The notes under the pieces were generated by a model that was not told where the DNA came from, did no database searches, and saw nothing but the letters and a program-made list of their open reading frames with translations. This document shows positions 1 to 6,787 of a stretch of 64,000 bases of DNA, in pieces (the first letter of the stretch is position 1; every line of letters starts with the position of its first letter). Origin of the DNA: an uncultured Ignavibacteriaceae bacterium. Its GTDB lineage: Bacteria; Bacteroidota; Ignavibacteria; UBA10030. The translations under genes and the position numbers were made by a program. The DNA lies in contig CAYIHQ010000001.1 in assembly GCA_964362905.1 (NCBI GenBank), positions 65,163-129,162 on the forward strand, written 5' to 3'.

Positions 1-560
1 GGCTTGTGAAATACTGGTCCATGTCCGAGAGGTGCCTCACCAGCATAGCTACTCGCTGTACCGGGGCTGAAGCTATACCAGGTGTGTCCCGGGCGCATCA
101 GGCCAGTTACATTCGGGTCGTGCGATCGAAAGTGCCCCTCTTTCAGAGCCCGATGTAGCTCATCATGGGACATCCCACGGAAGAGATGCTGGTAGTCAGT
201 GACCGCCGGAATGTGCTCATGGAGGTGACTTAGCGGCTTGGGAACCACGGTCTTCGCACCAGGAAGATAGTGGTGATCTACTAGCTGTGCAATCCGCGTG
301 TCGTAATAGATATGCCCATGGCGAGCAATGTGCTTGCCTACTACCTTCGGATGAATGTGCAGATCGAAATTGCCAACCTCTTGCCTGCTCGGATGCGCCT
401 TTACAACATACCTCCCACTACTGAGAAGATGTCGCAGACGATGCTCATGCTCCCCCAGCTCTACATGCTGCGGGAGTCCGGCATCTTGCATACCCCAACG
501 TACCTCAGCATCCGCATGTAGCCTAGGATACACAGTAGGATTCAGCTTGTAGCTAGACAT
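1..560 (-). CDS. Partial CDS (first ~186 codons; runs off the window start). Homolog of the C-terminal module of the 624-aa protein at 3888..5762
   Basis: Absent from the ORF track because it is open-ended. The ATG at 560 overlaps the stop of 553..1170. My translation is MSSYKLNPTVYPRLHADAEVRWGMQDAGLPQHVEL..LLSSGRYVVKAH..HIYYDTR..LFRGMSHDELHRAL..YSFSPGTASSYA. It aligns block by block with GMRDAGLPPHVEV / LISSGRYRLKAH / KVYYDHR / VWRGMSHEEWHGAL / TTSFSHDPDTARVYA of 3888..5762. Confidence 0.6.
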   Translation of the reverse strand, partial: MSSYKLNPTVYPRLHADAEVRWGMQDAGLPQHVELGEHEHRLRHLLSSGRYVVKAHPSRQEVGNFDLHIHPKVVGKHIARHGHIYYDTRIAQLVDHHYLPGAKTVVPKPLSHLHEHIPAVTDYQHLFRGMSHDELHRALKEGHFRSHDPNVTGLMRPGHTWYSFSPGTASSYAGEAPLGHGPVFHK

Positions 561-1170
561 GGCACGGACAACACAACCAATTGGTACCGATCTGGGAGAG
601 CTGAAGCTCAGGATGCTCCTCAAGCAGCAGCTCCATCTGACGCCTCTGTGGGCTCGGTGTTGACCACGTTGGATTGTAATTCGCAGTCCCCTCGTATACA
701 CAATTTGGTGGGTCCCCGTCCTCGCCCGGACCATCGAACCCACAGAGAAGGATCTTCCTGCACCCGGCTTTGGCCGCAAAACGGATCATCTCGATGCCGG
801 TCAGAGACTGCGCTAGGTAGTCCCACTCGATGATCCTCGGATGGCGTGGTGGTGGCGAAGAGAGCCTGATAGATGATACTCGAAGAGATTCTGGGGTACA
901 GATGAAGTAGTAATGCAGAGGGTAGATCGACCACGCGATCTCACCCGTGATATCCGGATCCACTGCGCCGAGAAAATCAGGCGGTGGCACCACCCCATTC
1001 AGGACATCCCGGTAGTAGCCATTGCAAGCCAGCAGCAGCTTGCCACGGCGCAACGACCAGAGATCGAGCGCTAGACGACTACGCCCATTACCCACCACAA
1101 GGGCCTCCCCTCCCTGGTAGCGGCCAAAGAACTGGCTAGTCGTCAGCAGCGGGGGGTCAAAGAAGGGCAT
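553..1170 (-). CDS. DUF115 / MptE-like (Maf-type glycosyltransferase-like) protein
   Basis: 205-aa ORF with SD GAGGAGGGG upstream. ALVVGNGRSR..LLLACNGYY..PPPDFLGAVDPD and GIEMIRFAAKAGCRKILLCGFDG resemble the GxGPS / PD..v..D / G.D layout of DUF115 Rossmann proteins. Motif recognition only. Confidence 0.5.
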   Translation of the reverse strand: MPFFDPPLLTTSQFFGRYQGGEALVVGNGRSRLALDLWSLRRGKLLLACNGYYRDVLNGVVPPPDFLGAVDPDITGEIAWSIYPLHYYFICTPESLRVSSIRLSSPPPRHPRIIEWDYLAQSLTGIEMIRFAAKAGCRKILLCGFDGPGEDGDPPNCVYEGTANYNPTWSTPSPQRRQMELLLEEHPELQLSQIGTNWLCCPCHV

Positions 1171-1183
1171 CGGTGGCCCCTCC

Positions 1184-3887: not shown

Positions 3888-5762
3888 CTAGCTCTTCAGA
3901 CGATGAAACGGTAGATGCACTTTCTCCCACCCAACACTAGCACTCGGGTGCATCGAGCTACCAGAAATATGCCACACCTTTCCATCGCGGTAGTGAGGGC
4001 GCAGCTCTACGTAGCCGGGTTTCATGGCGTAGACTCGACCCCTGTAAACGGCCTTTACGTGAGAGATCGGAGTAGCATTTGGAACATCAAAGTTTTCATC
4101 TGATTTTCCATACTCAGGAACGGCATCCGCAGGCTTCGGAATCTTCACCAAGTAGGCAGGTCGGTGAAAAGTAGCCTGGTGCCCCTTGGGAGCAAACGCA
4201 TGAGCGTAGACCCGAGCAGTATCTGGATCGTGGGAGAACGACGTAGTGTGTGCCTGGCTCGGGCCGAGGTTGTAGAGAGCATGGGATTTTATGTATCCAG
4301 ACCTTAGAGCCCCGTGCCACTCTTCATGAGACATCCCTCGCCATACATGATGCACGTCCTTTGGCTCCGGAATAGTATCATGGAGTCCAGAGTCTTTCTT
4401 TAGCTGCGCAATATGCTGATCTGGCCACACGGGATGGGGCGTTAGCTCAGCGTACCTATGATCGTAATACACTTTTCCCGCACGTCGAACATGGCGCGTA
4501 GGTCTAGGGTGTATCTCTACCTTATAGTGATCCCGGTCAGCAGCGGCGTGGGCTTTCAGCCGGTAACGCCCACTAGAGATCAGCTTTCTTATCCCGATCT
4601 CGATGGGAGGCACCTCGACATGCGGGGGTAACCCAGCATCCCGCATTCCACGCCGTAGGCTCTCCTCCTCCGACTCCCCCAGCCTTTTTTCTGGGCGTAG
4701 CTTATGAAGCTTACCCAGGTAACGAGGATGTGTGCTGAAAGTAGCACGATAGAGACTAGGCTTTTCTATCCCATAGTCTTTGACGATCTTGGAGGACAGA
4801 GAACGATAGAGACGACGAAGTGTTCCAAAGCTGTGAGGCTTAGGCTTATCAGAGCCAGTGTAAGGAGTATGGACACGCAACAATGACCGACTTAGGTCGC
4901 TATCACGAGAAACTGACAGGGATCCCATGGACGAGCCAGGGTAACGATGGCTCTTCACCGGATACACTTTCGTATGCGCTGTATACTCTGCCTGTTTTCC
5001 AGCACCAAGATACAGCTTGTTCTTCACCCCAGGGCGTAGCCGCCGAATCGGAAGGTTGTGTCCGCTGTGACTCACATGGGTGACATCAGGGATCTTGCTC
5101 GCCGCACGCTTCAATGCCCGCAGCATCCGCCACCTGCGCCCTCCGAGGAGAATATGTGCATCGGGGCTGAAGGTGTGCAGACGCAGCTCTCCCCTATCCT
5201 GCACACCCTTAGCCACAGGCCCAAGAGTTGGATGGTGCAGAGTGTAATTGCGAAGAACCATGGGATTCACGTTCACGGTGTGGCCCCCAACATGTCGAGC
5301 GGGCACAAACCTCATCCCCCGGTCCACAACGGGTGCTCTCTCCTTACCCAGCGGACGCGGTAGCGGGATCAGCAACTTGTGCTCCGGTCGCGCCCCGGAC
5401 ACCCGATCGGCGCTTATGTGGGTCACCCACGGAAAGTGCTTGCCGATCCGCCGTGTTACATGACGAATGTCTTCTGGGGAGAAGAAGTGCTCTCCCGCTA
5501 GTCGCTTCCTCTTCACCTCGCTAGGGAGGGGCGCCCCCAGGTAACCACTGCCACCCATCGCACCCGCCCACCCCACATTGAAACGCCGCCCTATGACACT
5601 GCCATGCAGTATCCCTGCTTTTCCCTGTCCTTTTCGCAGCACAGAATAACGCACTTCCCTGCCCTGAGGTGATATGCGAGAAGGCTTGTCCAGGGTTTTG
5701 CGCACCAAGACGGAGACGGGCTTGGCGGCTTCGCTGAAGCAAGGAGCGAGAAAGAACCTCAT
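3888..5762 (-). CDS. Modular basic protein (624 aa). The N-terminal ~350 aa are paralogous to 5759..6787; the C-terminal module is shared with the partial CDS 1..560
   Basis: Collinear similarity to the neighbour: GEHFFSPEDIRHVTRRIGKHFPWVT vs GERYFSPGDIRRVTRRVGKHFPWVT; HHPTLGPV in both; HSFGTLRRLYRSLSS vs VSFGNLRRLYRTVSS. The C-terminal WRG...TTSFS pattern is ART-like but speculative. Confidence 0.75.
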   Translation of the reverse strand: MRFFLAPCFSEAAKPVSVLVRKTLDKPSRISPQGREVRYSVLRKGQGKAGILHGSVIGRRFNVGWAGAMGGSGYLGAPLPSEVKRKRLAGEHFFSPEDIRHVTRRIGKHFPWVTHISADRVSGARPEHKLLIPLPRPLGKERAPVVDRGMRFVPARHVGGHTVNVNPMVLRNYTLHHPTLGPVAKGVQDRGELRLHTFSPDAHILLGGRRWRMLRALKRAASKIPDVTHVSHSGHNLPIRRLRPGVKNKLYLGAGKQAEYTAHTKVYPVKSHRYPGSSMGSLSVSRDSDLSRSLLRVHTPYTGSDKPKPHSFGTLRRLYRSLSSKIVKDYGIEKPSLYRATFSTHPRYLGKLHKLRPEKRLGESEEESLRRGMRDAGLPPHVEVPPIEIGIRKLISSGRYRLKAHAAADRDHYKVEIHPRPTRHVRRAGKVYYDHRYAELTPHPVWPDQHIAQLKKDSGLHDTIPEPKDVHHVWRGMSHEEWHGALRSGYIKSHALYNLGPSQAHTTSFSHDPDTARVYAHAFAPKGHQATFHRPAYLVKIPKPADAVPEYGKSDENFDVPNATPISHVKAVYRGRVYAMKPGYVELRPHYRDGKVWHISGSSMHPSASVGWEKVHLPFHRLKS

Positions 5763-6787
5763 TTTACTCGCCAGGGCCTCAGCTTGCGTATTTTTCCGGG
5801 GCGATCATTACCGTTGGTGTAGATTTCTGTATCCCCTGGTGATCTTCGTAGCACCGCGGAAGAAACCGTTCGGTAAAGACGACGGAGATTGCCAAAGCTA
5901 ACCCTATGAGGAGAGTGAACAGTTGGAGAGTGAACAGTTATACGTGGCAGATTATGCTGTCCGCCCGGTGTCAAACGTATATGAGCACCCGTGTCGCCAT
6001 AGCGATTGCTATGGACCATGAAATCGTTTGATGGAACGAGCGACATTCTATCAACAGTGCGAACAACAGCACGAGATTTACTTCTGAGTGTAAGCCTATC
6101 ATTCACTCCTACTCTTGGACGAAGAGGTATGCGCCTGCCCCCTGTAATCAGCGAGGTAACTCCATGGATCTTCCGGGCGGTATCTGCTACAGCACGAATA
6201 GCATTCCATGGCTTACCTAGTATACTTGCATTTGTAGGAGGGGGGAGATGCAAGGTATCCCCCTTCCGTGTCGCTAAACCTACAGGACCGAGCGTCGGAT
6301 GGTGTACACTATAAGTGCTCTGATCTCCCGTGTCTGTAGCTACTTTTCGCCTTACCAATCTCCATCCTCGGTCTACTGTCTTGTGTGTAACCCCTGGAGG
6401 CTTTGGGATGGGGATAAATACTTGGTGATGTGGGTTAGCCCCAGAAACCCGTCTAGCAGCTAGTTTGGTGACCCACGGGAAGTGCTTACCAACCCGCCTA
6501 GTAACCCGTCGGATATCCCCAGGAGAGAAGTAGCGCTCTCCAGCTTGTCGTTTAGCCTCCGACTCTGGATCACCCGGGTCTACACCTTCGGCACCTGCAT
6601 AATCTACATGAAATATACGACCTGCAATAGTTCCACGTAGCTCACCGACTTTACCCTGCCCTTTCCTATGGATTGCATAGCTTACTTTACGATAAGGAAA
6701 AGACTGCTTGTCAAACACCTTCTTGACGTAGGTTCCGCTACTCCGATCAAGAGCCTCCGTAAAGCGGGGGATAAGACAGAACTTCAT
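5759..6787 (-). CDS. Basic protein (342 aa), tandem paralog of the N-terminal part of 3888..5762
   Basis: See the alignment blocks above. ATGA overlap with the downstream gene at 5759-5762. Confidence 0.75.
   Translation of the reverse strand: MKFCLIPRFTEALDRSSGTYVKKVFDKQSFPYRKVSYAIHRKGQGKVGELRGTIAGRIFHVDYAGAEGVDPGDPESEAKRQAGERYFSPGDIRRVTRRVGKHFPWVTKLAARRVSGANPHHQVFIPIPKPPGVTHKTVDRGWRLVRRKVATDTGDQSTYSVHHPTLGPVGLATRKGDTLHLPPPTNASILGKPWNAIRAVADTARKIHGVTSLITGGRRIPLRPRVGVNDRLTLRSKSRAVVRTVDRMSLVPSNDFMVHSNRYGDTGAHIRLTPGGQHNLPRITVHSPTVHSPHRVSFGNLRRLYRTVSSAVLRRSPGDTEIYTNGNDRPGKIRKLRPWRVK

Follow-up and report, generated by a model that had tools for sequence, protein, structure and literature searches.

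A predicted ADP-ribosyltransferase-fold module in a modular gene trio of a T4-like phage

ADP-ribosyltransferases (ARTs) delivered by phages are tools of host takeover and anti-defence in the first minute of infection, and to our knowledge only a few such families have been catalogued (for example, Alt/Mod and ART-PolyVal). In phage T4, the ART domain of Alt ends a larger protein that enters the head by means of a short N-terminal propeptide, is cut after Glu by the protease gp21 and is ejected with the DNA, and ModA and ModB are its unpackaged T4 paralogues. Head packaging of ARTs is a recognised phage strategy (PMC9503650, PMC5512222). T4 gp21 cleaves after L/I-X-E (the cut was first observed at a Glu-Ala bond), the propeptide removed from Alt is 7 residues long, the first 10 residues of IPIII, its capsid-targeting sequence (CTS), are enough for head loading, other basic proteins with CTS-like leaders occur in T4 relatives, and a basic charge is expected of internal head proteins (PMC9026906). 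Here we describe three genes (A, B and C) in a 64,000-nucleotide stretch of DNA, hereafter the window, that is, positions 65163-129162 of contig CAYIHQ010000001.1 (C1), within a 721-contig, 3.5-Mb assembly (GCA_964362905.1) from an uncultured Ignavibacteriaceae bacterium. An original prediction, made from the sequence alone, had read A and B as tandem paralogues and the module shared by B and C as a possible ART of the Alt type. We show that the three genes are built from two modules; for the core of one of them, which recurs in a large family, structure prediction gives the ART fold with high confidence.

Three genes built from two modules

C1 is a T4-like phage, as judged from its Portal_T4 gene, class II ribonucleotide reductase with an intein, SbcCD-like genes, macrodomain, Gp23 and S77 protease. 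Genes A, B and C, which like almost all genes of the phage lie on the minus strand, combine an N-module of ~340 amino acids (aa) and a C-module of ~270 aa in the order N (gene A), N plus C (gene B) and C (gene C). By open reading frame (ORF) coordinates, A (5759-6787; 342 aa, isoelectric point (pI) 11.4) is an N-module by itself, whereas B (3888-5762; 624 aa, pI 10.5) has both modules; C (269 aa) is a C-module without a leader, with its first 186 aa encoded at 1-560 and the rest just before the window. Within B, residues 1-354 (4701-5762) form the N-module paralogue; residues 355-453 (4404-4700) form an accessory subdomain of the C-module, modelled by AlphaFold2 as two helices and a small beta sheet with a predicted local distance difference test (pLDDT) score above 90; and residues 454-624 (3891-4403) form the core with the predicted ART fold, after which come four long beta strands at the C terminus. 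The genes overlap closely: the stop codon of A shares the sequence ATGA with the start of B, and the start of A overlaps the stop of a preceding basic gene.

The relationships that had been read from the letters were borne out by alignment. A and B are collinear over all of A (BLASTP, 39% identity over 365 columns, E 1e-54; A 1-338 against B 1-357) and have in common the quoted blocks FSP.DIR.VTRR.GKHFPWVT, HHPTLGPV and SFG.LRRLYR..SS. Likewise, the extra module of B does recur in the partial coding sequence at 1-560, that is, in gene C (B 354-534 against positions 3-560, 40% identity over 183 residues, E 5e-32), with all of the quoted blocks (GM.DAGLP.HVE, L.SSGRY..KAH, YYD.R and [WF]RGMSH[ED]E); the accessory subdomain holds GM.DAGLP.HVE, SSGRY..KAH and YYD.R. 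A tblastn search of the whole 3.5-Mb assembly found no copies of either module besides A, B and C.

A sister phage, represented by a 96-kb groundwater metagenome contig, is 98-100% identical in DNA across the region and keeps the gene order. Its A/B/C layout is identical and its proteins are 93-97% identical in amino acids (for example, the C orthologue, P0004, has 269 aa and is 97% identical). As the same fusion is present on the sister contig, B is a real fusion and an assembly chimera can be ruled out. The ratio of non-synonymous to synonymous divergence against the sister phage was uninformative, as genomes that are 98-100% identical hold too few changes.

Predicted fold of the C-module

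AlphaFold2 models were made of the whole C-module (B 355-624; 45 sequences) and of the trimmed core (B 454-624), and reached a pLDDT of 93.1 and a predicted template modelling score (pTM) of 0.88 for the former and 92.7 and 0.84 for the latter. The original prediction had named an HHpred or Foldseek search without any ART-fold match among the results that would speak against it; instead, with Foldseek, the top 15 PDB matches of the whole module (among them DUF952 2o0q, pertussis toxin S1, Tpt1/KptA, TreTu, DarT and MTX) and the top 25 of the core, which now included EcPltA, all belong to the ART superfamily, with match probabilities of 0.77-1.0. The best match, 2o0q, was found at E 1.6e-3 and probability 1.0, with a TM-score of 0.59 on the target and a root-mean-square deviation of 4.4 over 114 columns. 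Among the viral models of BFVD, one true homologue (E 7e-12) was followed by a mycobacteriophage ParB polyvalent protein, seven Bacillus phage G proteins and a phage "RNA 2'-phosphotransferase"; for Bacillus phage G, a total of 10 or more ARTs has been reported (PMC9503650).

On these models, the fold assignment is that of a distant new family and not of a member of any solved family. The ART half of the original reading thus stands at the level of predicted fold, whereas its Alt-type half does not: no Pfam model, PF03496 included, matched A, B or C at E <= 1, and PF03496 had no match across the assembly, which rules out Alt/VIP2 membership. PDB sequence and profile searches returned a sole match, to uL16 (E 0.4), which we dismissed as chance.

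Active-site signature and alternative chemistries

To define the conserved residues, 151 domain sequences (representatives at <=50% identity) were aligned to a profile made without B and C. The two strands singled out by the original prediction, an aromatic-R-G strand (VWRG, B 473-476; LFRG, C 126-129) and a Ser-rich strand (TTSFS, B 506-510; YSFS, C 162-165), lie 31-35 residues apart in B and C, close to the ~30 that had been noted, and carry the two invariant residues of the family on predicted strands 1 and 2. These are the Arg of [YWF]RG (150 of 150 sequences; Arg475 in B, 4338-4340, and Arg128 in C, 177-179) and a Thr (151 of 151; Thr507 in B, 4242-4244, and Thr160 in C, 81-83), with Ser or Thr three residues after the latter in 133 of 151 (B Ser510). 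Between them lie a Glu in the helix after strand 1 (146/151; B Glu481), a Ser (146/151, with Thr in the 5 others; B Ser493) and an Asn (148/151; B Asn498). The original prediction had found no convincing ExE motif; the family alignment supplies an ExE-like element, with a Glu at the start of strand 5 in 146 of the 151 sequences and, in 77, an E, D or Q at position -2 from it. The family signature can be written R / T-x-x-S / [EDQ]-x-E on strands 1, 2 and 5, and appears closest to the R-S-E clade.

Such conservation bears on the reading that A, B and C serve solely as structural or internal head proteins, with an ART likeness that is a coincidence or a relic devoid of NAD+ chemistry. Sequence searches yield no significant tie to any ART family, the Foldseek E-values are weak and the genes sit within a block of basic, unannotated genes, all of which would suit this reading; yet the near-absolute conservation of R, E, S, N, T and E across sequences this diverse is typical of an active site and not of a scaffold, and the top 25 PDB matches come from one superfamily. 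We regard a purely structural role as decidedly improbable.

The five exceptions to the strand-5 Glu are B (Asn), C and its orthologue (Asp), and P0005 and P0096 (Tyr). B has Asn557 (4092-4094) in the consensus column and Asp559 (4086-4088) at +2, and C has Asp209-Val-Glu211, outside the window. In all five an acid follows two residues on (Asp559 in B, Glu elsewhere), and, P0096 excepted, they group in a single clade of four with a Shimodaira-Hasegawa-like approximate likelihood ratio test (SH-aLRT) support of 94. Together, these two features indicate that the lineage moved its acid by two positions, with B alone having Asp and not Glu.

The Asn557/Asp559 arrangement makes the competence of B as an enzyme doubtful, and it is also an argument for a non-transferase with an ART fold, that is, an NADase or NAD+-phosphorylase that would deplete or convert NAD+ or ADP-ribose (ADPr) signals, or, in the case of B, a dead NAD/ADPr-binding or decoy domain. 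ART-superfamily members with substituted S and E (for example, RES) act as NAD+ phosphorylases (PMC9503650), and the best structural match, DUF952, is without known transferase activity. However, in 146 of the 151 members Arg, Thr and Glu are retained together, which is the pattern of active R-S-E enzymes, C and P0005 still have a Glu on this strand, shifted by two residues, and the portal/MuF and polyvalent fusions described below fit macromolecule-modifying effectors (PMC5512222). We consider a non-transferase unlikely, although it is the strongest of the rivals to an R-S-E-type enzyme.

The structural matches also raise the question of substrate, as DarT and Tpt1/KptA stand among the top ones and could point to a nucleic-acid modifier (DarT-, pierisin- or Tpt1-like) that the basic N-module of B tethers to DNA or RNA. 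The pI of A and B (10.5-11.4) would agree with such tethering, and polyvalent proteins pair the C-module with DNA-acting domains (for example, topoisomerase IB in P0141). Against this, DarT and Tpt1 are members of the H-Y-E and H-H-h clades, in contrast to the C-module family with its strand-1 Arg; the R-S-E matches (pertussis-like toxins and TreTu) modify protein, although MTX is counted among the DNA-modifying MTX/pierisin enzymes; and internal head proteins are equally basic (PMC9026906). A nucleic-acid target seems to us improbable.

Size and domain contexts of the C-module family

A HMMER scan with B 311-624 as the query against 1.84 billion representatives gave 483 matches at E <= 1e-3, of which 261 reach E <= 1e-10 (clusters at 50% identity), with a conserved family core corresponding to B residues 460-615. 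Among the best 149 of the 483 matches, 46 are stand-alone proteins of ~260 aa, and the remainder are proteins, the longest of 4023 aa, in which the domain may be N-terminal, central or C-terminal; the accessory subdomain is complete in ~45 of these 149 and partial in 40 more. When A, B, C and up to 45 family members were scanned against Pfam, PHROGs and NCBIfam, none was assigned to a family. The C-module family is absent from the available curated libraries and papers, and uncurated or unpublished profile collections may have it.

The family shares the repertoire of polyvalent proteins (that is, LPD, MuF, MPTase and ART domains), whereas B, with its two modules only, is not a polyvalent protein. 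Architectures include Phage_portal with Mu_F (P0018), Phage_portal_3 with DUF7178 (P0089), and fusions to an ATLF-like peptidase, to GNAT, and to topoisomerase IB with Acb1/2H and MuF. ART-PolyVal-like domains occur in ~15 of 150 family matches, and PF18760 (ART-PolyVal) directly adjoins the C-module in P0043, P0141 and P0044, where the two are separate domains; identity of the C-module with ART-PolyVal is thereby ruled out, and none of 45 family members tested matched PF18760. The metagenomic P0141 (1972 aa) holds a 2H/Acb1-like phosphodiesterase, topoisomerase IB, the C-module, ART-PolyVal and MuF in one chain.

Cultured carriers are represented by 3 of 50,697 phage records, each of 65,014 bp and with identical match statistics (Planktothrix/Synechococcus phage Pag-Yong1/MinM2), and in Pag-Yong1 the domain lies inside a 2772-aa large polyvalent protein with LPD38. 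The two stand-alone homologues with informative contigs both sit in late gene clusters of T4-like type, the first at a distance of 3 kb from S77 and Gp23 and the second overlapping the end of a gp15 gene, with terminase, sheath, tube and portal genes nearby.

As some homologues lie C-terminal to MuF or portal domains and the Rhs toxin TreTu is a structural match, the C-module might be thought a MuF-type polymorphic toxin domain that lysogens direct at competing bacteria, accompanied by an immunity gene. The phage, however, is T4-like, with no integrase found in its annotated portions; no small immunity-like gene follows B or C (the downstream genes encode 361 and 336 aa); and the C-module is often in the middle of a polyvalent protein and not at a variable C-terminal tip. 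We judge this possibility the most remote of those weighed here.

Leaders, charge and packaging

Both A and B begin with an 11-residue candidate capsid-targeting or propeptide leader of the pattern M[KR]F...F[ST]E/A (a slash marks the putative cut): MKFCLIPRFTE/A in A (residues 1-11, 6755-6787, minus strand) and MRFFLAPCFSE/A in B (5730-5762, minus strand). Four more proteins of the contig, with pI >10.4, start with MRFLVLE/A, MKVYALSE/A or MMCSVLE/A, so that all six leader-bearing ORFs have pI >10.4 (Fisher p = 5e-4, for a pattern picked post hoc). In homologues with an N-terminal module, [LI]xE occurs within residues 6-22 in 12 of 21, against 14% of background windows (p = 7e-6), a test that is partly confounded by the EGLP block of the C-module itself; examples are MITFRAFLIE/K, ...NLLE/A and ...NLVE/S. 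The phage has the corresponding protease: Gp23 (PF07068, E 4.6e-66) and an S77, gp21-type prohead protease (PF03420, E 1.4e-20) are encoded at C1 52996-56007, just before the window and 9-10 kb downstream of C. Given that A and B are basic and carry a leader in a phage with a gp21-type protease, B is plausibly a packaged, Alt-like effector, and we infer that the N-module is a head-internal carrier.

Searches with the N-module (A alone, and a four-sequence profile) among 5.8 billion proteins found sister-phage orthologues only, the sole homologue of A being P0153, and Pfam, PHROGs, NCBIfam and PDB sequence searches with it were all empty. The middle of the N-module (window 4839-5438 in B and 6039-6338 in A) is one of the hotspots of local divergence from the sister phage, with 93-96% identity as compared with ~99-100% in the surroundings, and the ART-like module of B differs at 2 of 810 bases; synonymous divergence is 0.074 for the N-module and 0.005 for the C-module. 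Either local diversification or gene conversion between A and B could account for this pattern.

Upstream of A, in the same overlapping gene chain, lie three very basic genes (6784-10008, minus strand; 290, 315 and 499 aa; pI 11.3-12.0, as taken from the sister orthologues) without a Pfam or PHROGs match, which are candidate internal or ejected proteins. At the head of the chain that contains these genes, A and B is a gene for a 192-aa mCpol protein (window 10013-10588, minus strand; PF18182, E 1.4e-16, and also a Cas10 palm2 domain). Repeated E-A-V-D-P-x-x-R-[KW]-[LV]-R-L-[RK]-K blocks are found in Arg/Lys-rich proteins of pI >11 (window 6784-8605; C1 63906-64916, 51289-51753 and 34648-35124). 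The 336-aa protein adjoining C has three such E-A-V-D-P blocks with [ILA]-E/A before each, and has the appearance of a polyprotein that the prohead protease would cleave into basic units.

Proposed role

We suggest, with a probability of roughly 0.55, that the C-module is an NAD+-using enzyme of the R-S-E type that is delivered into or deployed against the host, B being packaged and C intracellular. The family would then consist of NAD+-using enzymes acting on host macromolecules. The leader of B would be cut after Glu by the S77 protease, the N-module and the ART-like domain would be loaded into the head, and B would be ejected with the DNA, as T4 Alt is. A would be the same carrier minus the cargo, and C, leaderless and with its Glu kept, may act inside the cell like ModA and ModB. 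In such a scheme, the Asn/Asp substitution of B may have weakened or altered its chemistry.

Several points weigh against this proposal. No Foldseek PDB match has E < 1e-3, TM-scores are 0.3-0.6 and no sequence method (Pfam, NCBIfam, PHROGs or PDB) ties the C-module to a known ART family: hhalign gave a probability of 20% over 16 columns (strand 2 and the next helix) against the ART-PolyVal alignment, and of 0.2% against DUF952 (PF06108), to which there is no Pfam match either. At the putative active site, strand 2 reads T-x-x-S and not the canonical S-T-S, the helix Glu (Glu481 in B) has no standard ART role, the consensus strand-5 Glu is lost in B, and it is assumed for the model that the conserved residues line one pocket. 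As for delivery, the P3 residue of the putative cut site is Phe in A and B but Leu or Ile in T4 sites, gene C is without a leader, and the N-module has no relatives beyond the phage pair, which leaves charge and position as the grounds for its role as a carrier.

A wider and considerably more tentative proposal, which we put forward as possible but doubtful, is that the C-module represents a widespread Arg/Thr/Glu ART family, a second ART of polyvalent and head-delivered proteins that is habitually in tandem with the H-Y-D ART-PolyVal, and that it has here been split into a capsid-delivered B (with relocated, altered acid) and a free intracellular C, forming an Alt/Mod-like system independent of Alt. 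If so, the ART tandem could mean two NAD+-dependent chemistries directed at one host target or at two. If active, the C-module would bring an R-type ART into the repertoire of polyvalent proteins, and its frequent position beside an H-Y-D ART would call for an explanation.

The original prediction had also linked the putative ART to a macrodomain. This domain is real (53598-54152, minus strand; 184 aa; PF01661, E 1.8e-21; phrog_335) and its gene lies ~48 kb from B; a role as the eraser for A, B and C is a proposal whose common ground is that they share a genome. Phage Macro domains have been read as likely early weapons against an NAD+/ADPr-dependent antiviral response of the host (PMC9503650).

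The C-module defines a family of hundreds of clusters at 50% identity, which curated libraries do not recognise and whose members are now annotated as hypothetical. The signature of invariant residues is open to mutation, and a cultured carrier (Pag-Yong1/MinM2) exists.

Phage genome and neighbouring genes

C1 is 129,506 bp long and its ends share an exact 55-bp overlap, which indicates that it is probably a complete circular genome of ~129.45 kb. The first 30 bases of C1 occur again at ~C1 128960, and adjacent ORFs at C1 128649-129482 have their first 12 residues in common, a small repeat at the genome junction. A DNA search of the region against the 50,697 phage records gave no match, and the T4 late-promoter motif TATAAATA does not occur within the window. 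Portal_T4 is encoded at window 43317-45236, and the class II ribonucleotide reductase (window 39248-43000, minus strand) is split by an intein with a LAGLIDADG domain.

A 363-aa protein (60855-61946), encoded between the SbcC-like and SbcD-like genes, and a 391-aa protein adjoining mCpol (10528-11703) have in common a C-terminal module of ~160 residues (34% identity, E 3e-15), another shuffled module in this phage. Two small proteins flanking the neighbourhood of C (window 553-1170 and C1 62705-63259, both minus strand) have GNG(R/C)S N termini; one has a faint MptE-like/DUF115 match (E 0.038) and the other corresponds to phrog_30607, and they are possible glycan or nonulosonate-type transferases in the late block. 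A 124-aa protein starting MRLYHHTS (C1 ~63256-63630, minus strand), 1.3-1.7 kb downstream of C, has no Pfam match, and its LYHHT resembles the ART-PolyVal strand V[FV]YHGT.

Comparison with known systems

The systems closest to this locus each share part of its features. DUF952 2o0q (Caulobacter CC0527) is the best structural match to the core, with its whole 114-residue chain aligned; it is a minimal cellular protein of 115 residues without the Arg/Thr/Glu signature, and the likeness is structural only. ART-PolyVal occupies the same niche as the C-module (that is, polyvalent, MuF and portal-linked proteins) and is often adjacent to it in one polypeptide, but its site, that of the Tox-ART-HYD2 clade, is His/Tyr/Asp where the C-module has Arg/Thr/Glu, with Arg and not His on strand 1.

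For the carrier part, the internal proteins IPI-III of T4 offer the nearest parallel: A, B and at least four other proteins of the phage are very basic and have a short Glu-then-Ala leader, and a gp21-type protease is encoded. The far larger A (342 aa) and B (624 aa) have Phe at P3, however, and show no sequence similarity to IPI-III.

For the enzyme part, strand 1 bears an Arg, strand 2 a Ser/Thr and strand 5 an acid in the C-module as in the R-S-E enzymes Alt and Mod, and both occur in T4-type phages. The C-module differs from Alt in its T-x-x-S, an extra invariant helix Glu, four C-terminal strands and an accessory subdomain, and in the absence of the Glu from B. The pair of B and C parallels the split between Alt and Mod, and the set of A, B and C (carrier, carrier plus enzyme, and enzyme, as we read them) would provide a natural comparison for the loading of head cargo in T4-like phages.

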